11,289 nt of DNA from a virus (IMGVR_UViG_2645728091_000014:1-11289), one strand, 5' to 3'; shown: positions 1-11,289, numbered from the stretch's first letter. The notes: a model not told the origin generated them from the sequence alone. Translations and numbers: made by a program.

Positions 1-249
1 ATGCGCACACAGGTTGTATTGCAAAAATGGGGTAATAGCATTGCCCTTCGACTAACGGGAAACCTTAAAACCGTTCCGGGTTTTTCAGTGGGTGATATCG
101 TCAACGTTGAAATTAGTGAAAAGGGGCTTTTTGTAGAAAAGCCTGCACGCCGTCGCCTGAGTGAAGCCGAATTACTCGCCGGGATAACGCCAGTTACAGC
201 GCACGCGGACGAAATTGCCCCCCCATTCAATGAGGAGGTTGATTACTGA
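1..249 (+). CDS. MazE/PemI-family antitoxin (SpoVT/AbrB-type)
   Basis: 82-aa ORF starting with ATG at base 1. N-terminal K-W-G-N-S-x-A-x-R motif is typical of MazE/PemI/ChpS antitoxins. Stop TGA (247-249) overlaps the ATG of the downstream toxin gene (TGATG). Confidence 0.8.
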   Translation: MRTQVVLQKWGNSIALRLTGNLKTVPGFSVGDIVNVEISEKGLFVEKPARRRLSEAELLAGITPVTAHADEIAPPFNEEVDY

Positions 250-593
250 TGTTTGTACCTAAGCGTGGTGATATTTGCTGGCTGGATTTTGAGCCGCAGA
301 AAGGAAAAGAGATCGGAAAGTATCGCCCGGCACTCATACTGTCCCATGAGCAATATAACCGACTCACCGGGCTTGTCATATGCTGCCCCATAAGTACGAG
401 CATACGAAATGCTCCCACAGAAGTTCCGGTAACAAATCTGGACGCCCCCAACGTTGTAGCAACCACACTCATTCAAACCCTTGACTGGCGTCAGCGGAAA
501 GCGCGCTTAATCACAGAGGCAGAAGATGGGGTATTTAATGATGTGCTTGAAAGAGTCATTACCCTGATTGGCGGAGAGCATCTGCTTAAGTAA
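249..593 (+). CDS. MazF/PemK-family mRNA interferase toxin
   Basis: 114-aa ORF with the family-typical N-terminus (P-x-R-G-D-I-x-W-L-D-F-E-P-x-x-G-x-E-x-G-x-x-R-P-A-L-I-L-S), comparable to MazF/ChpBK/PemK. Start overlaps the antitoxin stop. Confidence 0.85.
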   Translation: MFVPKRGDICWLDFEPQKGKEIGKYRPALILSHEQYNRLTGLVICCPISTSIRNAPTEVPVTNLDAPNVVATTLIQTLDWRQRKARLITEAEDGVFNDVLERVITLIGGEHLLK

Positions 594-636: not shown

Positions 637-1908
637 CTATTCTTTCCAGTCAATCCCATCCAGTAAGCACCCTGCTTCATATTGCCCCACCACCCAGTCA
701 AGGTTACAGGACTCATAGAACGCGAGGCGATTATACTGAGGCTCGTTTTTTACCAGGCCACGAACGGAACCACGCTGCCAGTACAGACACAGATTGGCAA
801 GAGGTGTGATCAATACAGCATTGTCCGGGAAAAATGGAACGGTCACAGCCGGGAGATTCCCCAGAACAGGATTTTTAATGATTTCCTCGTTAAGCAAAAT
901 TTCCTGATTCATCTGCGATGGATCAAGACGGTTTATCAAAGGCCATTGCTTACGGACCAGCGTATTGTGACTGCATACGGCCACAATGCCTTCCTGCCAC
1001 TGTTCATCAATCATGGATTGCCAGGCATCCAGAACGAGCGCATCTATCGTATGGTGTGTACCGCGTGTATTACTTTTCGGTGATGAAACAGAAAGGCCGC
1101 TGATAACCCTTCCCGCCGCTTCATTTCGAAACTTCTGCAACCAGCCCACGCCGCAATCATCACGCCCCGGATATGTTCCGGGATCTGATGTATCGGCATA
1201 GTGCGTACCGTTAAAACCAATCTGAATCAAATCCAGCCATTTCCGGCGTTCAAAAGCAGCCCGTGCGCTTCCTTCAAGACCGTTTGCGGATGCGTGAGCA
1301 TCAACATTGTCGTAGTTCAGCGCAAAATCAAAATTAACCTGCTCGCAGCGGTAGCCCCTTGAAACCAGTGAATGCGCCTGTAGTGGCGAACGGCGCGCGT
1401 GAGACGGTGATGTGCGTGCCAGCGGCCCCGAAGCGTCTACCAGCACAACCCGACCTGATATATCCGTAACAGGCACGGGAGTTATTTCAGCAAGGAAATT
1501 TGCCTGCCATCCACTGGCAAGCGTTGCACTCTGGCGGGGAACAGGCTCAACTTCTGATGAATAGCGCGCAGTGTCATCGGAAAAGTGCAAGTCCTTCGGA
1601 TGCTTTCCGGTTATCGACTCGATAGCGAGATTGAAAGCTATCTGAGACTGTTGATTTCGTTGTGACACAACAGAACCAGCAGTGCGATTATAACGCTCAA
1701 TGCCGTTGTTATTGCCCTCACCGTTTGCAGAATGCAGGGTGTGAAGCTCGAGTTCGCGCTCCAGTTTTTGATATTCATTGTCCAGGGCGCGACGGGTTTC
1801 ATCGCTTATGCCTGCTGTATTTGCTTTCAGGCGATTCCGGGACATTGATCCCCTGAGTCGGCTCACTATATCAGCGACGTGCAAATGTGGAATGTTCAGA
1901 CCGCCCAT
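637..1908 (-). CDS. hypothetical protein ORF2 (423 aa), function unknown
   Basis: Long minus-strand ORF. Preferred start is the ATG at 1908-1906, which overlaps the TAA stop of ORF1 (minus-strand TAATG) and is preceded by GGGGGTGG. The track's 470-aa version starts at 2049 and would overlap ORF1 by 141 nt. No Walker A, CxxC or other motif recognised by eye. Confidence 0.7.
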   Translation of the reverse strand: MGGLNIPHLHVADIVSRLRGSMSRNRLKANTAGISDETRRALDNEYQKLERELELHTLHSANGEGNNNGIERYNRTAGSVVSQRNQQSQIAFNLAIESITGKHPKDLHFSDDTARYSSEVEPVPRQSATLASGWQANFLAEITPVPVTDISGRVVLVDASGPLARTSPSHARRSPLQAHSLVSRGYRCEQVNFDFALNYDNVDAHASANGLEGSARAAFERRKWLDLIQIGFNGTHYADTSDPGTYPGRDDCGVGWLQKFRNEAAGRVISGLSVSSPKSNTRGTHHTIDALVLDAWQSMIDEQWQEGIVAVCSHNTLVRKQWPLINRLDPSQMNQEILLNEEIIKNPVLGNLPAVTVPFFPDNAVLITPLANLCLYWQRGSVRGLVKNEPQYNRLAFYESCNLDWVVGQYEAGCLLDGIDWKE

Positions 1909-2618
1909 TACTGCCACCCCCGGCAGAGTTCTCTGCCCTCCGCAAGGTCGCGCATTTTTTCTGAATTCTGTCGCGCTGCGCTCCATTGTACAGGTGAAGG
2001 GGCGCTCCTGATTGCGCAGCTTACTGAATCCGGGAGTTTCTCCGGGCAATAACGCAGCGGGCTGGAGGTGTCGCTTTCGGTATCGTTAATCCGGCCGCGA
2101 ATCATCCCGACACTTTCAGCAGTATCTGCCGCTTTCAGTGTTTCGCATATTTTCTTTTCTGCGTTATACAGCGGCTGGCCAAGCAGCTCACATAAACCAC
2201 GAATCAATAACAGAACAGGGGTCAGCTCGTTAATCAGTTCGGGAAGTGCTTTTGCAAATATCTCTGCCCGCAACTTATTATCAATACTTTCGTAAGCACA
2301 ACCAGCCTCTGCCGCGTTATAACGACACTCCAGTAGCCTGATGCGCGCCTCATCATGCAGCACCCGCAGACGCTCAAGATTTTCTCGCGCCACACCCGCC
2401 TGAATGGATAATTTCGCGGAGGCTTCCGTTTTTACTCCCAGCGCAGACAGGATTGAGTTCTGCCAGTCACGATCGAGAGACTCCAGTTCCCCTTTCGTCT
2501 GTTCGATAGTCGCTTCCAGATTGGTGACTAATGATTCCTGTTCACTGAGTTTTGCCCTGGCAGTATCAAACCGTGCTTTACATACCTGATGTTCGGCGCT
2601 TGCCTGAGTTATATCCAT
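1908..2618 (-). CDS. hypothetical protein ORF1 (236 aa), predicted helical; possibly Psu-like
   Basis: ATG at 2618-2616 preceded by AGGAG with a 6-nt spacer. N-terminal half is rich in heptad-like charged/Leu segments. Weak resemblance to my recollection of P4 Psu (N-terminal FDT, central A-L-x-P-E-L...E-L-T), unverified. Confidence 0.7.
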   Translation of the reverse strand: MDITQASAEHQVCKARFDTARAKLSEQESLVTNLEATIEQTKGELESLDRDWQNSILSALGVKTEASAKLSIQAGVARENLERLRVLHDEARIRLLECRYNAAEAGCAYESIDNKLRAEIFAKALPELINELTPVLLLIRGLCELLGQPLYNAEKKICETLKAADTAESVGMIRGRINDTESDTSSPLRYCPEKLPDSVSCAIRSAPSPVQWSAARQNSEKMRDLAEGRELCRGWQ

Positions 2619-3637: not shown

Positions 3638-3862
3638 GATGAACAATAGCGTCAAAAAGAGTGCTTTTGAGAGATTTTTTATGGCAACTGCGCCGCGTGT
3701 ATTACGTTTTTTACCATCCCCGCCGTGCATGTACATACTTCATTTTCTGCCAAACAACAGGGCAACTCCCCGTGACTGACAGCCCCAAAAAATCAATGAT
3801 TAATGTTGCATTTTTGTTAGAGATTAGACCAGTTGTTTTGGGGCTCTGCCTCATAATCCGGT

Positions 3863-4179
3863 GGGGGGTGCGCAAAGCGGTTACAACGGTTACAACAGTT
3901 AAAAACACAACTTAACAGTATGATTTTAATGGATATTGTTTGTAACCGCTTTGCGGTTACACTGCGGTTACAACGGTTACAGGTTTCAAAAAGCACTTTA
4001 TTATCAATCAATTAAAAACTTAACCTGTAACCGCCTGTAACCTAACAAAACGGTTACATGTAACCGCGTTGTAACCGCTTTTGTAACTCATCCGACCAGT
4101 TATAATATATTGATATATAATACAAAAATAAGTAATTCTAAATTTGTAACCGTTGTAACCGCTTTGCGCATCCCCCCCC
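3863..4179. repeat. iteron array bounded by a perfect 27-bp inverted repeat; putative ori/crr-like or att-arm region
   Basis: 3869-3895 (TGCGCAAAGCGGTTACAACGGTTACAA) is the exact reverse complement of 4144-4170, extended by G6 (3863-3868) / C8 (4172-4179). At least 13 GGTTAC/GTAACC hexamers lie between, as direct repeats (3878-3895, 3953-3981, 4024-4043) and palindromes (3941-3961, 4051-4066). An AT-rich stretch sits at 4100-4143 and an IHF-like WATCAANNNNTTR match at 4002-4014. Confidence 0.6.
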
Positions 4180-4366
4180 AAACTTTAGCGCGACCCTTTA
4201 AAATGTTAATTAAACTCACTTACTCTGTCTCATTCTCATTAACTCTCTGTGATTAAAATGTATCTCGTCATTATTTGACTCTTTCTGATAATCAGGGGGC
4301 AAAAAATTGATGGCGGCACCACTGCAATATGGCCACCATTGCATTGCCGTTACCGTTGGTTCTGGC

Positions 4367-4397
4367 CAACAAAAAAGGTCAGCGGGAAACTGACCTC
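4367..4397 (-). terminator. rho-independent terminator downstream of int
   Basis: Stem GGTCAG (4377-4382) / CTGACC (4390-4395) with 7-nt loop. On the minus strand it is followed by TTTTTGTT, 30-60 nt after the int stop. It is also T-rich on the plus side. Confidence 0.6.
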
Positions 4398-4425
4398 TTT
4401 TGCTGTGAATGTAGCGTTCTGCGGG

Positions 4426-5430
4426 TTACTCTGCTGGCTCTTTTTCTTCGATGATCACTATGTTGGCTACCGGGTTAAATCTCATGGCATCTGCCAGATA
4501 ATCCGGTGCAAAATGTGCGTATGCCATAGTCTGCTGAATTGTCGCATGCCCAAGGATTTTTTGTAGCGCAAGAATGTTGCCACCGTTCATCACAAAGTGA
4601 CTGGCGAATGTATGCCGCAATACATGCGCAGCCTGCCCCCTCGGTAAATCGGGTTTTATTTTTTTTAATGCCCGGCAAAACTCTCTATACTTCACATCAA
4701 ACAGTCGCCCGGTTTCTTTTGTTTTTACGGCATCGCATATTTCCTGCGACACAGGCACCGTTCTTTTTCTACCGTTTTTGGTTTCCAGAAACGTTATTCT
4801 ATTATGAACTATTTGCTCTCCATGCAATCTGCTGGCCTCACTCCAGCGGGCTCCGGTACATAGACACAAGAGCGCAACCCTTCGTTGATCTCCATTCAGC
4901 CCGTCAAGCAACAATGTGACCTCGTTTTTTGATAAAAAGGCCATTTCCCGCTGCTTTACATAAAGAACAGGAATACCACGAACCGGATGCTCTGCATCCC
5001 ACAAACCGATCTTTTTCAGGGCTGTAAACATCCCCGATAATCTGTTCATGTATCTGTTTGCTGAGGACGGCTTTAATCCTTCCGCAATTTTCTGCGATCG
5101 CCATGCAATGATTTTTAATTTGTCGAGTTCTACCGCAAACATGTCAGCTCCAAGCTCATTAATAATTTTGCCAAGCTGCTGTTTATCCGTGTTTGCCTTT
5201 CGCCTGTGCTGACCGTGATAAACCCACCACAATTCCAGTAAATCGCTAAGCGTTCTCCGGTCGCGATAGCCCTGTATAAACTCGCGCTTTTCGGCGTTCG
5301 CTATGATGTACCGTTCAGTTGCTGTAGCTATCGATTTTTTGTCAAATATTCTTCTGATGCGCTTCCCTTTACGTCCGCATGGCCTGATATCGAGCAGCCA
5401 CCGCCCATCATGCATCTTTCTGATCGGCAT
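4426..5430 (-). CDS. int: tyrosine recombinase / phage integrase (P2-type)
   Basis: C-terminal H-x-L-R-H-T...L-G-H...Y catalytic motifs. N-terminus (DGRWLLDIRPCGRKGKRIRRIFDKKS) resembles P2/186-type integrases. Preferred ATG at 5430 lies 2 nt after the primase stop with AAGGAGG upstream; the alternative ATG at 5466 adds 12 aa. Confidence 0.9.
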   Translation of the reverse strand: MPIRKMHDGRWLLDIRPCGRKGKRIRRIFDKKSIATATERYIIANAEKREFIQGYRDRRTLSDLLELWWVYHGQHRRKANTDKQQLGKIINELGADMFAVELDKLKIIAWRSQKIAEGLKPSSANRYMNRLSGMFTALKKIGLWDAEHPVRGIPVLYVKQREMAFLSKNEVTLLLDGLNGDQRRVALLCLCTGARWSEASRLHGEQIVHNRITFLETKNGRKRTVPVSQEICDAVKTKETGRLFDVKYREFCRALKKIKPDLPRGQAAHVLRHTFASHFVMNGGNILALQKILGHATIQQTMAYAHFAPDYLADAMRFNPVANIVIIEEKEPAE

Positions 5431-5432
5431 GT

Positions 5433-8102
5433 TTAACGCCCCTCCTTGTAACTGAATATCCGGCATTTCAGTACTTCCGGCTCTCTGGCCTCGGCGACCC
5501 CTCTTCCGGCGTTTGCCTGTCTGGAGACCTCACTACGAATGGTTTTGCGGCCTGTCAAAGGTCGGGAACGTCCTGCTCCGAGCAACTCAATCATTTCGCG
5601 GTCAGTGCGGATCTCCACGCGGTGAATAGCGGCAGCCTGTGCCAGTTGCGGAATACTGATAGCAATCCCCTCGCGGCATCCCTTGCCGTAGTGGTTTACA
5701 CCGTATTTTGTTATGCCGTCCAGGAAGTCGAACGCCTCCCAGAACTCCATCACTTCCGGTAAATCAGCCGCCGCCGCTTTAACCTGCGCTGTTGCCATTT
5801 GTTCCAGTTCCAGACATGTGGCATCAAGCCATTCATCTGGGATATCAATAACGCATTTCAGCGCCCTGACCAGCGCGATAAGTTGTGCGTGATTTTTGGC
5901 GATGCGGGGATGGCGAATATTTTCGCATCCGCAAAGGCGTTCCGTTTCAACTGGAGATACTTCCAGGAACGTTTGCATAATCGCCCGTTCCTGACTTGCC
6001 GCCCGGTGAATAAACCCAGATACCTTCTCGACGGGGTAAAGTTCCAGCCGTCTCGCCGCCAGGCGGGTATCAGGTGAATGGCGTTTTTTATCGGTGTATA
6101 TGCGTATCAGGCGCTCAATAATTGCCGGAGAGGCGTTTACCCGCGCATTCTGCGCAATCACGATAGCGCCCTTAAAATCCGGATCATAGGTGTTGTTATT
6201 GTTGGCCTTAACACCACGAACGCCGATACCACCGCCGTTATAGAGACTTTTCAGGTTATCGAAGTCAAACGCACCTCTTTTTTGCGCATTGTCTCCCCGG
6301 TCCGCTTCAATCAGAACAACAGGTAATCCGGCGACCTGTCCAAAGGTGCGCTTCCAGCCCGCCTCTGATCCTTTGGTTGGATCAACGCCTTCATAGTTGT
6401 CACGACCGCACAGCCGCCAGCAAAAATCAATCAGTGTTGATTTACCCGTTCCGGGCTCCCCGGTGACTTCAAGGAAGGGGAAGGATTCTTCTTTATCCCG
6501 GATTTGTTCGCTGAACAGGGAGCCCAACCAGAAAGCCAGGGTAATAATTCCCTTTTCACCAAAAGCCAGCCAGAGATCTTCCACCCAGGACGCTGTAAAT
6601 TCATCCGGTTTTTTGTAGTTAATCTGTAATGTGGGTTTTTCGCTTAATGGTTTTGCGTTTATGCCATCAATTTCAAAATAATCCTCATCATTGATTTCAT
6701 AAGTTTTACCCTTATAAACGGCAATATCATTAAACAGCCATGCCCCAATTCCCTTGTTGTATCCGATAAAATCCTGACCAATAACCTCTTTTATTGCGGG
6801 AAGGTCATTTTTTATTAATGCGTCAAGCTGCGTAGTCGTTCCGGTATAAATACCGCCTTTTGCCACGTGCAGCAGGCGTTTTTTAAATTCAGATGAGGAT
6901 GTTAATTGTCCTGATGTAAAGGTGTTTTTCACCGTAGCACCATCCGGGAATGTAACGCGGAAGTAATACCATGCTTCATCCGTGTCATTGTTTCGAATGT
7001 AATAAAGCGGCACTGGGTTACAGTTTGCGATTTCTTTTACAGCACCGGATTCCTTAAGTGCAATTTTGCGCGCTTCGTCTTCGTCAACATTTCGCTCATT
7101 AATGACACGCTCAACAGCCTTCATATGGCGCTCAATGTCCAGCTTGAACCAGAAAACACGGTTATCAAAAGTAAAATGAAATTCCTTCCGCTCACGAAAG
7201 GAAAACATTATTAGTGCCTTATCTCTTGGAGATTTCGCCAGCAATAAATCACCGTAATAACGGTATCTTTTCACATCATGGCCACGCAGCTTTCCGGCGA
7301 TGTGTAAATCATTCCAGTCGCGTTTATTGCTGTTTTTACCCGGTAACGCCGCCGCCGTTCTCCAGCCGTCTTCGGCGCTGCGTTCTGCATGTTTTTTCGC
7401 GTAACGTTCACCCGCACGCCCGTTATCCAGGGCCCACACAATAACCGGACGGGGATTATCTCCGCACAGCTTCGCCAGCTCTTCCAGCGCCTTATCAGGG
7501 TAGTTCACGGCAGACATGACAGAAACGGCCGCAATGCCATTCTGGTTAAGGCTGATGGCATCAAAGATGCCCTCACAAATCCAGATTTCTTTGGCCTTGC
7601 TTAAATCTGCTCCCGGATAAGCCCACCACAACCCCTTGTAGCTGCCGGAAAAATTCGCCTTGCGCGCGAAGCGTCCCGGTCGGTCTATGATGCGCTCCCA
7701 CCACACGCCGTCAGCCAGCGTAAAACGCACAGTAGCGGCCTGTTCGCCGTTTTCCTTGTCCTGGTATCGCTCCTGAGTAAATGCGCCCTTCAGTGGCCCC
7801 ACAGCAATATTGCGCGCTTCCTGAAGATAAGCTGCCGCCGCTGCATATGGCTCATCTTTCGTGCTGATATAACGATCTGACCATGATGAAAACACATCCG
7901 GGTAAAGTTCTTTGGTCAGCAGGTCTATACCGCATTTATTTTCGCGCCCACAGTGTACGATGTACGGCCTTTCAAGGCTGGTAAACAACTCTTTCTTTCC
8001 ACATTGCGGACAAACACCATACCGGAGGTAGTTATTTTCTTCTTTGAAGTTGTAATCACGGATAAGACGGTTAATAATCTCTTTTCTGATGTCAGATTTC
8101 AT
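5433..8102 (-). CDS. alpha-like DNA primase-helicase (zinc-binding N-terminus, TOPRIM primase, SF3/D5-type helicase)
   Basis: N-terminal C-P-x-C...H-C...C zinc motif, TOPRIM-like E-G-I-F-D-A and L-D-N-G-R-A-G, and Walker A G-E-P-G-T-G-K-S-T. Preferred ATG at 8102 with GGAG 8 nt upstream; the track start at 8126 is a GTG inside a hairpin. Confidence 0.9.
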   Translation of the reverse strand: MKSDIRKEIINRLIRDYNFKEENNYLRYGVCPQCGKKELFTSLERPYIVHCGRENKCGIDLLTKELYPDVFSSWSDRYISTKDEPYAAAAAYLQEARNIAVGPLKGAFTQERYQDKENGEQAATVRFTLADGVWWERIIDRPGRFARKANFSGSYKGLWWAYPGADLSKAKEIWICEGIFDAISLNQNGIAAVSVMSAVNYPDKALEELAKLCGDNPRPVIVWALDNGRAGERYAKKHAERSAEDGWRTAAALPGKNSNKRDWNDLHIAGKLRGHDVKRYRYYGDLLLAKSPRDKALIMFSFRERKEFHFTFDNRVFWFKLDIERHMKAVERVINERNVDEDEARKIALKESGAVKEIANCNPVPLYYIRNNDTDEAWYYFRVTFPDGATVKNTFTSGQLTSSSEFKKRLLHVAKGGIYTGTTTQLDALIKNDLPAIKEVIGQDFIGYNKGIGAWLFNDIAVYKGKTYEINDEDYFEIDGINAKPLSEKPTLQINYKKPDEFTASWVEDLWLAFGEKGIITLAFWLGSLFSEQIRDKEESFPFLEVTGEPGTGKSTLIDFCWRLCGRDNYEGVDPTKGSEAGWKRTFGQVAGLPVVLIEADRGDNAQKRGAFDFDNLKSLYNGGGIGVRGVKANNNNTYDPDFKGAIVIAQNARVNASPAIIERLIRIYTDKKRHSPDTRLAARRLELYPVEKVSGFIHRAASQERAIMQTFLEVSPVETERLCGCENIRHPRIAKNHAQLIALVRALKCVIDIPDEWLDATCLELEQMATAQVKAAAADLPEVMEFWEAFDFLDGITKYGVNHYGKGCREGIAISIPQLAQAAAIHRVEIRTDREMIELLGAGRSRPLTGRKTIRSEVSRQANAGRGVAEAREPEVLKCRIFSYKEGR

Positions 8103-8923: not shown

Positions 8924-9106
8924 TTACCCCTCCATGATTTTTACTGCGCATTTGTGGGTTAATCGCCCCTGTTTGTCATTGCGGGAATATGCCATACGAC
9001 AGGCATCACGCCATGCATCGTCATAAGTCGGATATTCCCAGGAATGAATCATCTGGCGAACGTCGCCGTTCTGGTAGTTAATCAGGGTGATAAGGAGCTT
9101 AAACAT
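8924..9106 (-). CDS. hypothetical small protein (60 aa)
   Basis: Preferred ATG at 9106 is preceded by GGGAGG about 7 nt upstream. The track's 86-aa version (start 9184) has no RBS. Confidence 0.5.
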   Translation of the reverse strand: MFKLLITLINYQNGDVRQMIHSWEYPTYDDAWRDACRMAYSRNDKQGRLTHKCAVKIMEG

Positions 9107-9272
9107 GGCACGCCTCCCGGACACGGATACGGGCAACAAAGACCAGACGGGATGCCGGAAGCATGGCGCGCGCTTCGCGCTCACTGGCAGCGGTAACGGT
9201 ATGAAGGCGAATATTTTTACCGTGGCACTGCATAAAGCGCCAGATAAAATCAGGGCGTGTTGATATAGCCAT
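9099..9272 (-). CDS. hypothetical small protein (57 aa), possibly Icd-like
   Basis: ATG at 9272 preceded by AAGGAG. The track's 175-aa extension to 9626 is low-complexity and lacks an RBS. The E-R-E-A-R ... L-V-F-V-A-R-I motif pattern resembles my recollection of Icd-like proteins in P4-like prophages, unverified. Confidence 0.4.
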   Translation of the reverse strand: MAISTRPDFIWRFMQCHGKNIRLHTVTAASEREARAMLPASRLVFVARIRVREACHV

Positions 9273-9629
9273 TTTGGCGGCTCCTTGATTAAGTTTACGG
9301 AGTCTCGCCAGCACGCTGCTAAACATGGTGGCGGGACGTAACAGGGTTAGCAGACTGGCAATCAAGGAACCAGCGAGCGCAAAGGCTCCCCCATTACGCC
9401 CCGCCATAATACGGGGTAGGGTGGAATTACGGGCACAAAAAAACCGCATTACGGAAATATAGCGGCTACCCGCTTGATTGTTCAGGCTGCTAAACCCGGC
9501 ACCCGCTTTATGAGGTGCGGGCAAACGATACGCCATGACAAAAAAGCGAGTCAAGCAATATTGCAAATTATTTTTGCTCACTTGCGCTGAGTGATTGATT
9601 TTAAAGAGTAAAAAAGCCATAATCATTTC

Positions 9630-9720
9630 TGCCTATTACTTCTTATTGCTGACTTTAGGTGCATTAAATGCACATCCTTGACTGGTTGGCTCGCTAGCTT
9701 CAGCGAGCTTCTTTTTTTTT
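9630..9720 (+). ncRNA. candidate ~90-nt plus-strand small RNA, antisense to the minus-strand operon leader
   Basis: Plus-strand TTGATT (9595-9600), 17-bp spacer, CATAAT (9618-9623), then a GTGCATT/AATGCAC hairpin (9659-9673) and a terminator hairpin with T-run (9689-9720). No plus-strand ORF of note. Confidence 0.25.
9689..9720 (+). terminator. intrinsic terminator oriented on the plus strand
   Basis: GCTCGCT (9689-9695), loop AGCTTC, AGCGAGC (9702-9708), then TTCTTTTTTTTT (9709-9720). On the minus strand the A-run precedes the stem, so it is not a minus-strand terminator. Confidence 0.5.
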
Positions 9721-9820
9721 GCTCTGCTGCCAGTACTTGGCCTCCTTCCCCCACATGTAGCAATACGTTCAGATCAGTAAGTTTTGCCACCCAGTGATGG
9801 ACGCAATAAACCACCAACGC

Positions 9821-10141
9821 TTATTCAACTCTGGCGCTACCGGATTCTCTCTCCCTTTTCTTTTTGGCGTTTTCGTATGGGTTATTCACTTTGGCAATAA
9901 CTGGCGGATTACGTAGCCACCACAAAACATCACTTAACAGCCAGGTACATGAGCAACGCCCCAAAGAGTGACGAGGAGGAAAAGCACCGATCTTCTCCAG
10001 TTCCCAGCGGCGGGAGCGTGAAAGCGTGGTCATTTTTTTACACTTCTCTTCCCTGATGCGTTCTTCGCAGTCAAAGCCATACTCGGCGAGTATGGTGCGG
10101 CGCTGTTCTGGAGTTGGTGGAATGAATGCGGATTGAGTCAT
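9821..10141 (-). CDS. alpA: AlpA/Vis-family phage transcriptional regulator (excisionase-like HTH)
   Basis: 106-aa ORF. The segment L-S-R-S-R-R-W-E-L-E-K-I-G-A-F-P-P-R ... W-L-L-S-D-V-L-W-W-L matches the AlpA HTH pattern. Confidence 0.8.
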   Translation of the reverse strand: MTQSAFIPPTPEQRRTILAEYGFDCEERIREEKCKKMTTLSRSRRWELEKIGAFPPRHSLGRCSCTWLLSDVLWWLRNPPVIAKVNNPYENAKKKRERESGSARVE

Positions 10142-10202
10142 ATTTCCCCCTATGTTTCTGAACTTTCGGGGGAGATTTTTGTTTTACGGAGTTTTGAAAG
10201 CA

Positions 10203-10239
10203 AGTATTAAAGGTCTTATTAAGATGCTTGCTGGTCTTA
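10203..10239. repeat. two 15-bp direct repeats 21 bp apart in the alpA upstream region
   Basis: GGTCTTATTAAGATG (10203-10217) and GGTCTTACTGAGATG (10224-10238), 13/15 identical, overlapping the 3' end of the 350-aa ORF. Confidence 0.35.
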
Positions 10240-11289
10240 CTGAGATGATGCTTTAATCCATCTTGATATAGTACTTTTATCAAAGCGCATATTGAGTCCT
10301 GCCTCTCTTGCTTCCGCGGTCAATATATCAGCAAGTTTTACCGGATTGTTTTCGAGTTCTTTATAATGAATAACAAGCATCGCACGAAAAAAATCCTTCA
10401 TTGTTTTAGATAATCGTTCTATATTGTTTTTATTGGTGCATATGTCTTTCTCTCCATCCTCAGAACTTAATATATTGTTACCCGCACACAAATATAAAGT
10501 ATCTGCCAATGGATTAACATAATCTTTTCTTAACTCGCTATTGGAGTTTGTAGCATTTTGTATTTTTAAAAAATCATTCTTTAAGATATATAAATCACCA
10601 ATATCAAAAGAAACATCCTCAGTAACAATTAGTCCTATATGTATATCAACGTCAGAAGCAATTATAATATTGCTATTAATTATTCGGTTGGCTTTAAACT
10701 TCTTATTAAAATCATAGTTGGCAAAAAAACTTCCCCCCAAAGCGAAAATGCCGCCTATTTCAACAAAATACTTATGGTATTTTTCTTGAATACCTTTAAA
10801 TACTGGTGGCACAACTGCCACAGCTCTTTCATCCGTTGCTATTCGATATACACTATATATGTGATAATTTTCCCCATAATATACCCCCCTGTTATAATAA
10901 TTTAACAAAGCAAATGCAGTATCAATTGCTATGTCACCAAATTTGGGCGTTACATATGAATGACTTAGAGATTCGCACATTGAATCAAATATAATTCTCG
11001 ACTTGGTTTTTATATAATTAAAACCATGGTGTTCTGCCGCCCTTTCTGAAATGGCATCAAGATCAGATAACCGTGATTTACACGGTTCTGAATCCATAAA
11101 CTTACGCAGACAATCGAAATTAACCACATCTTTTTCATCTGGGATATTTAATACTCCATATGCAGATTCAATTTTTATACAAATACGAATGCAGCCTGTC
11201 ACAGCCCAATGAATAAGATCGTCAATATCGCAGTCTAATAACTTTGCCGCGCGCTCAATAGGATAGTAATCTCTTAGTGGTAACGTCAT
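10237..11289 (-). CDS. hypothetical protein (350 aa), AT-rich, HTH-like segments at both termini
   Basis: ATG is the last three bases of the window, so the true start may lie upstream. N-terminal Y-P-I-E-R-A-A-K-L-L-D-C-D-I-D-D-L-I-H-W and C-terminal A-D-I-L-T-A-E-A-R-E-A-G-L-N-M-R-F-D-K-S-T-I-S-R-W-I-K look like helix-turn-helix elements. A weak G-G-S ... S-D-V-D-I stretch was noted. Confidence 0.65.
   Translation of the reverse strand: MTLPLRDYYPIERAAKLLDCDIDDLIHWAVTGCIRICIKIESAYGVLNIPDEKDVVNFDCLRKFMDSEPCKSRLSDLDAISERAAEHHGFNYIKTKSRIIFDSMCESLSHSYVTPKFGDIAIDTAFALLNYYNRGVYYGENYHIYSVYRIATDERAVAVVPPVFKGIQEKYHKYFVEIGGIFALGGSFFANYDFNKKFKANRIINSNIIIASDVDIHIGLIVTEDVSFDIGDLYILKNDFLKIQNATNSNSELRKDYVNPLADTLYLCAGNNILSSEDGEKDICTNKNNIERLSKTMKDFFRAMLVIHYKELENNPVKLADILTAEAREAGLNMRFDKSTISRWIKASSQ

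Follow-up and report, generated by a model that had tools for sequence, protein, structure and literature searches.

X, an exchangeable gene family between integrase and alpA in P4-like phage satellites and a possible allele-specific regulator of alpA

A gene that lies between the integrase gene and alpA of a phage satellite in Escherichia coli, here called X, is a real, conserved and uncharacterised part of satellite regulatory modules, in which a regulatory role for it is plausible. Comparison of alleles at the DNA and protein level indicates that X is a swapped cassette, always of the same family. We tentatively propose, with a confidence somewhat short of even, that X is a DNA-binding protein that regulates alpA in an allele-specific way and has an exchangeable sensor domain. 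The gene is a concrete candidate for the helper input to alpA, being conserved, located directly before alpA, and swapped together with phased sites and part of the promoter.

In the 11,289-nucleotide stretch of DNA that we analysed (the window), X corresponds to ORF350, a complete coding sequence on the minus strand (10237..11289) with an ATG start and 350 amino acids plus a stop codon, and it has the same bounds as the RefSeq CDS WP_001492714.1. The X ATG is the last base of the window (11289). The upstream DNA was taken from the record of E. coli strain 600468 (NZ_CP025849.1; locus L001), which is 100% identical to the window over positions 9700-11289. In L001, the integrase TAA lies 16 nt and an in-frame TGA 12 nt before the X ATG, and thus X truly starts at position 11289 and does not belong to any larger protein. 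The original prediction, which had called a 350-aa ORF at the window edge and asked for the sequence to be extended upstream, was therefore correct in its limits, and no continuation into a larger protein was found in L001. At 33.6% GC (GC3 25.9%), X is also, as predicted, far more AT-rich than the primase/integrase core: the adjacent integrase gene has a GC content of 42% and the second integrase gene of the island one of 46%, while alpA, the primase and capsid genes and most others lie at 49 to 52%. Other X alleles are likewise AT-rich (35% GC). At the composition of X, about 7% of random codons would be stops, and arithmetic from this composition puts the probability of 350 codons without a stop near 1e-12, which excludes a chance ORF. 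The gene is intact in 29 to 30 complete E. coli genomes, and pN/pS among near-identical alleles is approximately 0.2, based on small counts (4 to 7 nonsynonymous versus 6 to 9 synonymous differences). A blastn search in "distant" mode with the DNA encoding the X N terminus gave matches in 30 of 5,426 genomes; this search recovers the present allele class alone and not the whole family.

The element carrying X is a P4-like or PICI-like phage satellite. The window comprises most of a ~12-kb island between hpt and gcd in E. coli, whose minus strand encodes, in order, a P4-type integrase (just outside the window), X, AlpA, an Icd-like ORF, small ORFs, a primase, a second integrase, an ogr/Delta protein, and a 236-aa protein followed by the capsid protein. 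The position of X immediately upstream of alpA had been noted before and was borne out: alpA occupies 9821..10141 on the minus strand, and its product, of the regulator/excisionase type, matches Pfam Phage_AlpA (E=3e-7) and PHROG 2790, "excisionase and transcriptional regulator" (E=5e-30). The Icd-like ORF (9099-9626, minus strand) encloses a C4 antisense RNA (9324-9411, minus strand, 74.7 bits) and an isrK element (9437-9518, minus strand, 52.1 bits), which is the arrangement of P4 CI/seqA-type RNA immunity, so that the region downstream of alpA probably gives the island RNA-based immunity. Integrase, alpA and primase genes are co-oriented and followed by captured late genes, and C4/isrK is present, as in P4-like elements and Gram-negative PICIs. 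These elements are organised in four zones, namely integration (int and AlpA), Bro/immunity RNA (C4/isrK), replication, and late functions (PMC10111431), and the assignment of the element follows from the fit of the island layout to this organisation. The island probably exploits P2-type helpers, and a relative carries a protein with a P4-type "Derepression" domain.

Several further features of the island were noted. The Toprim primase (889 to 897 aa, PHROG 1139) is directly followed by the second tyrosine recombinase (Int_N plus Phage_integrase, 334 to 346 aa; 4426-5466, minus strand); the two ORFs overlap or abut, and the position of the recombinase is kept in five other loci (L002, L003, L004, L022 and L024). 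The P2-family major capsid gene and the preceding gene for the 236-aa protein form a two-gene module (637-2618, minus strand) that also occurs in L003 (12038-13976), L021 (7517-9505) and L023 (7506-9460). In some relatives this module lies directly after alpA and not at the distal end, and it has thus been shuffled. The capsid protein has an N-terminal extension of approximately 120 aa past the family profile, and the 236- to 295-aa protein encoded before it is possibly a scaffold. A MazE/MazF toxin-antitoxin pair (1-593, plus strand; compared with L003 4173-5644) is located at the hpt-proximal end of the island and is replaced by a Hok/Gef gene and a gene for a 169-aa hypothetical protein in other island alleles; this end behaves as the true slot for accessory genes or cargo. 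A stretch of approximately 700 bp (3737-4426) separates the ogr/Delta region from the second integrase gene; it has no annotated gene and a GC content of 39 to 40%, and is a candidate origin or other non-coding element.

The gene order int, X, alpA, all on one strand, was found in 11 of 11 distinct X-family members examined, which represent at least three island types. The 11 members cover three E. coli allele classes at gcd, Salmonella-type gcd islands and metagenomic contigs, and they include an island type with Ash, AAA_25, SSB and a small terminase subunit as well as an island whose VapE-like primase adjoins a type I restriction system. All integrases beside X in these 11 members are of the P4 type with an Arm-DNA-bind_3 domain. 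Where the two genes are co-oriented and close-packed, as in most members, X starts 3 to 27 nt past the integrase stop codon. An unrelated gene in the X slot was not found among the relatives examined. The fixed order, with the same family always in the slot, indicates that X is a core module with exchangeable alleles. The suggestion in the original prediction that X might be cargo or a moron did not hold, since a homologue of X occupied the slot in all 11 members and no unrelated gene did so.

Full-length homologues of X were found, and they constitute a previously undescribed family. An indexed search of 5.8 billion proteins returned three relatives, and an exhaustive HMMER search with a small profile returned approximately 253 cluster representatives (50% identity clusters) at E <= 1e-3, of which approximately 30 were full-length (290 to 380 aa). 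Every source name among the relatives was "hypothetical protein", and none had a precomputed Pfam domain. Profile searching of genome contigs with a narrower family alignment recovered two loci. The whole protein matched no family in Pfam, PHROGs, PADLOC or NCBIfam; its N- and C-terminal fragments alone gave no Pfam match even at E up to 10, and 47 family members searched against Pfam gave scattered single matches, none below E=0.006. There was likewise no match to the PADLOC-DB 2.0 defence models at E up to 1, to PDB sequences with either the single protein or, subsequently, the family profile, or to 50,697 phage records by tblastn with ORF350, and a literature search for six RefSeq accessions of the family returned no mention. 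Clear homology to a characterised phage regulator, which the original prediction had raised as a contrary outcome, was thus not encountered in these searches. The novel P4-borne defence systems described in PMC13586616 were considered as relatives of X and set apart by their domain descriptions, which show no resemblance to it.

X alleles of about 25% identity occur in islands that otherwise agree at approximately 100%, and this exchange is evident when L001 is compared with locus L002. The two are approximately 100% identical over nt 1-1000 of the integrase gene, fall to 35 to 45% DNA identity (22 to 50% protein identity) across X, and return to 97% DNA identity from approximately 40 nt before the alpA ATG, with the boundary of the swapped cassette at the alpA -10 hexamer; the AlpA proteins are identical (WP_000194274.1). 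The separate acquisition of X that had been predicted from its composition is borne out by these figures, with 97 to 100% identity in the flanks against 35 to 45% in X itself. Exchange also takes place within the gene. In islands with near-identical flanks, the central domains of X are 20 to 31% identical between alleles. Among alleles that share the same type of downstream site (described below), the C-terminal 62 aa are 53 to 98% identical, while the centres are 25 to 31% identical (50% in the closest pair); between alleles of different site types, C-terminal identity is 12 to 52%. The combination of like C termini with unlike centres indicates that the centre of X is exchanged independently of its ends. 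We also observed that the last ~200 nt of the integrase gene (L001 16607-16800, just outside the window) diverge along with X, with 74 to 90% identity between L001 and L002, and that the 3' end of the L003 integrase gene is closer to L001 (80 to 89%) than is the rest of that gene (70 to 82%). This divergence of the integrase 3' end could mark the recombination breakpoint or stem from a functional coupling.

Defence loci, too, are marked by rapid swapping between satellites that are otherwise identical (PMC13586616), and X could be a single-gene anti-phage protein acting by abortive infection or interference, with a centre that senses a phage component and HTH domains that autoregulate or bind phage DNA. 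We consider this unlikely. The low GC content of X, its position next to the integrase gene, and the swapping of its alleles between otherwise identical islands all match the pattern reported for defence loci of P4-like satellites, in which many genes of unknown function have proved protective (PMC13586616), and the island does carry other accessory modules (MazEF, Hok/Gef). X, however, has no PADLOC match, no recognisable effector domain and no catalytic motif. Its slot never holds another system, unlike true hotspots, and the main P4 defence hotspot is located elsewhere, between int and psu-delta-sid (PMC13586616). Moreover, X is embedded in the integration and regulation zone and has its own paired sites before alpA.

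The architecture of X was examined with AlphaFold, which gave a pLDDT of 86.5 and a pTM of 0.71 with a 47-sequence alignment of the family, compared to a pLDDT of 34 with a 3-sequence alignment. In the model, residues 8-48 form a strand, two helices and a beta-hairpin, residues 52-250 a centre that is helical and alpha/beta, residues 267-289 a disordered linker, and residues 295-348 a C-terminal three-helix domain. The N-terminal winged-HTH-like domain (residues 1-50; 11140..11289, minus strand) is the most conserved part of the family, with the commonest residue reaching approximately 80% per column in the 47-sequence alignment and the pattern M-x-LPLR-[DE]-[YF]-YP..RAA.LL.C..DD..HWA..G.I; this domain is net acidic. 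The C-terminal HTH-like domain (residues 290-350; 10240..10422, minus strand) has predicted helices at 295-308, 316-329 and 338-348 and the conserved pattern ..NPxKLA..L..EA...G....F.K.T[IV]S.W[IL]K. The domain carries a net basic charge, and its several types are co-inherited with the downstream site type. In the model, both end domains are HTH-like at the fold level only; no sequence-profile match of X to Phage_AlpA, HTH_17 or MerR was obtained. X is also not an AlpA homologue, a candidate identity that was rejected on the basis of an hhalign probability of 0.4% against the AlpA alignment and the lack of a Pfam match.

The linker (residues 267-289; 10423..10491, minus strand) is predicted to be disordered (pLDDT < 50) and is indel-rich in the family alignment. 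The central helical and alpha/beta domain (residues 53-265; 10495..11133, minus strand) is highly variable between alleles, with the commonest residue at 15 to 35% per column in the 47-sequence alignment and with G180, L233, K237, D239 and F240 as its only conserved points. The small number of conserved polar residues argues against an enzyme. A structural or sequence relative of the central domain was looked for and none was detectable. The picture of HTH-like ends around an unassignable centre, drawn earlier from the single sequence, thus agrees with the model. The accompanying hint of a nucleotidyltransferase-like fold, based on a G-G-S ... S-D-V-D stretch, failed on both counts: G185 is kept in 16, G186 in 5, S187 in 6, S212 in 5, D213 in 8 and D215 in 8 of the 47 aligned sequences, V214 is outside the six commonest residues at its position, and a search for a nucleotidyltransferase alpha/beta fold found none.

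Two direct-repeat sites lie around the end of X, upstream of the inferred alpA promoter. Site 1, CATCTCAGTAAGACC (10233..10247, minus strand), overlaps the X stop codon, and site 2, CATCTTAATAAGACC (10212..10226, minus strand), ends 8 nt before the inferred alpA -35 hexamer. The L001 pair is 15 nt long, 87% identical (13/15) and spaced 21 nt start to start. Taken alone, this pair is not significant in shuffles (p 0.24), and its weight comes from a spacing and position that are common to other loci. In 10 of 13 loci, the best 11-mer pair has the 21-nt spacing, with its members at -103 to -106 and -82 to -85 from the alpA ATG; the site length across loci is 11 to 15 nt. Seven of these 10 loci have perfect copies (11/11), which score above at least 995 of every 1000 shuffles, and the copies are near-palindromic in four of the seven.

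The sequence of the sites varies with the allele of X. Sites of the form GCTAA(A/T)TTAGC accompany the X C-terminal type ..DTITNWLK, and sites of the form GCTTA(A/T)TAAGC accompany ..DTVSRWMKED. The site CTTAATAAGAC accompanies the types ..NTVSNWLKES and, in the window, ..STISRWIKASSQ; in L001, this core matches site 2 only, at up to one mismatch. Because the sites differ between X cassettes while AlpA in L001 and L002 is identical, the site sequence tracks the X allele and not AlpA. The C-terminal coding region adjoins the sites, and the co-variation of C-terminal type and site type may therefore be the result of linkage alone. Two helical turns apart, fixed relative to the promoter and travelling together with X, the paired sites are nonetheless candidate cognate binding sites, in that they look as such sites would.

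Downstream of site 2 is an inferred weak sigma-70 promoter for alpA (10175..10203, minus strand), composed of TTGCTT (10198-10203), a 17-nt spacer and AAAAAT (10175-10180), which fell below threshold in a consensus promoter scan. At the same position, TTGnnn, a 17- to 18-nt spacer and (A/T)AA(A/G)A(T/A) are present in 10 of 13 loci, with site 2 ending 8 to 9 nt before. The site centres lie at approximately -51 and -72 from the inferred alpA start. The alpA leader can form a hairpin (10145..10173, minus strand; dG -12.1 kcal/mol, z -5.05) in which an anti-SD UCCCCC pairs with the Shine-Dalgarno GGGGGA. Of 13 loci evaluated per sequence, 10 have a hairpin with z < -2.6 in the 41 nt that precede the alpA ATG, and its arms vary (CCCCC/GGGGG, GCCUCAU/AUGAGGC, UCUCCAC/GUGGAGG and UGCUCC/GGAGCA); RNAalifold on a MAFFT alignment of the leaders, which was poor, gave no structure. 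The inferred -10 hexamer directly precedes the anti-SD arm, so that a transcript begun at this promoter would lack the arm while an int-X read-through transcript would contain it.

Together, these elements suggest how X could act as an allele-specific regulator of alpA. X would be made from the integrase operon and would bind the two cognate sites, probably via its basic C-terminal HTH domain. Its occupancy 8 to 9 bp upstream of the weak promoter would then set whether AlpA is expressed. The SD-sequestering hairpin would keep int-X read-through transcripts silent for AlpA translation, such that only transcripts begun at the regulated promoter would yield AlpA, the activator/excisionase with which the satellite cycle begins. 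The fast-diverging centre of X may serve as the input module for a helper-phage or cellular signal, and different X alleles would accordingly confer different induction or immunity specificities. The fixed module, the cassette swap, the paired sites, the co-inheritance of C terminus and site, and the two HTH-like ends count in favour of a regulator. The positions of the site centres off the promoter, unlike classical repressor operators, and the net acidic character of the N-terminal domain, the most conserved part of X, count against it. With centres at approximately -51 and -72, the sites appear to suit an activator better than a repressor.

AlpA sets off excision and replication in Gram-negative PICIs and P4-like elements. 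A more specific form of the proposal, which we regard as doubtful, is that X is the helper-sensing switch of a large Gram-negative satellite group, its centre binding a helper-phage protein and thereby altering occupancy of the sites. Satellite induction would then be coupled to a specific helper, and allele exchange would direct the satellite towards new helpers. The Gram-negative PICI cycle has AlpA as its activator, and helper phages switch on alpA (PMC6092414).

The location of the sites bears on two further explanations. Extra copies of the perfect site pairs were searched for in the L002, L004 and L007 islands, near int and elsewhere, and none was found beyond the position before alpA. 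One explanation would have X assist the P4-type integrase as an accessory factor, affecting directionality, target choice or architecture, with a Xis-like N-terminal winged helix that binds att-arm DNA or the integrase. The distance of 3 to 27 nt between X and int, the constant association with Arm-DNA-bind_3 integrases, the apparent resemblance of the modelled N-terminal fold to MerR/Xis domains and the divergence of the last ~200 nt of int with X would all suit such a factor. We think it improbable, however, given that AlpA is already the excisionase in these elements (PMC6092414, PMC10111431), that exact site pairs are absent near int and the island ends in the three loci searched, and that the extreme diversity of the X centre would be left unexplained.

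The other explanation is that X is a DNA-binding hijacking factor that acts on helper or competing phages, its variable centre being matched to different helpers. Models for such a factor are PLE CapR, which represses a helper gene, and P4 epsilon, which derepresses P2. The satellite does have P2-directed functions (an ogr/Delta zinc finger and a P2-family capsid gene, with a P4-type derepression protein in a relative), and the allelic diversity and HTH-like domains of X would be in keeping with this role. But the identifiable cognate DNA elements lie inside the island only, before alpA, in the three loci searched, and ORF350 has no homologue in the 50,697 phage records, and we judge hijacking to be very improbable. 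A role for X at the alpA promoter is the best-supported reading. If it is correct, the identity of the X allele would predict helper specificity, which would be useful for satellite ecology and for the engineering of PICI-based delivery vehicles. If X is instead a defence gene, it would be a single-protein system not described before, with a fold that is likewise new. Either way, the family merits a Pfam entry and a solved structure.

Among known systems, one in a like position is the uncharacterised gene yfjH of the E. coli K-12 cryptic prophage CP4-57, which lies between intA and alpA. YfjH and X are alike in size (approximately 320 to 350 aa) and in occupying the int-alpA interval of a P4-type element, but yfjH is on the opposite strand, and homology between the two was rejected (hhalign probability 0.9%). 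EcCIMP1_002, the int-alpA gene of a characterised PICI, was considered as a counterpart and set apart by size alone, being far shorter at approximately 10% of the size of UvrB (PMC11773190). AlpA and P4 Vis (Phage_AlpA, HTH_17) are neighbours of X in the integration zone, and the first 50 residues of X take up a possibly comparable small winged helix in the model; unlike these proteins, X has 350 aa and two further domains and is not a member of their family.

The lambdoid immunity cassettes resemble X in that a protein, its presumed sites and the -35 region are exchanged together, with boundaries in conserved flanks. They differ in their protein family and in the layout of their sites, as the two sites of X are phased at 21 bp and lie upstream of the promoter, and immunity proper in the X island is probably RNA-based (C4/isrK). 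The Stl (Rpr) proteins of SaPIs and PICIs likewise adjoin int at the regulatory end of the satellite and combine an HTH with a highly divergent region, which in Stl binds the partner (PMC6092414). Great allelic diversity between otherwise similar islands is common to Stl and X, and both are proposed gates of the island cycle. X has no sequence or fold similarity to Stl, contains two HTH-like domains, and has its candidate sites upstream of the promoter and not over it. Stl is transcribed divergently from the genes that it controls, whereas X shares its strand with int and alpA in every locus, which counts against an Stl-like logic. X belongs to neither the Stl nor the repressor-operator cassette families, and its likeness to them would be one of functional analogy.
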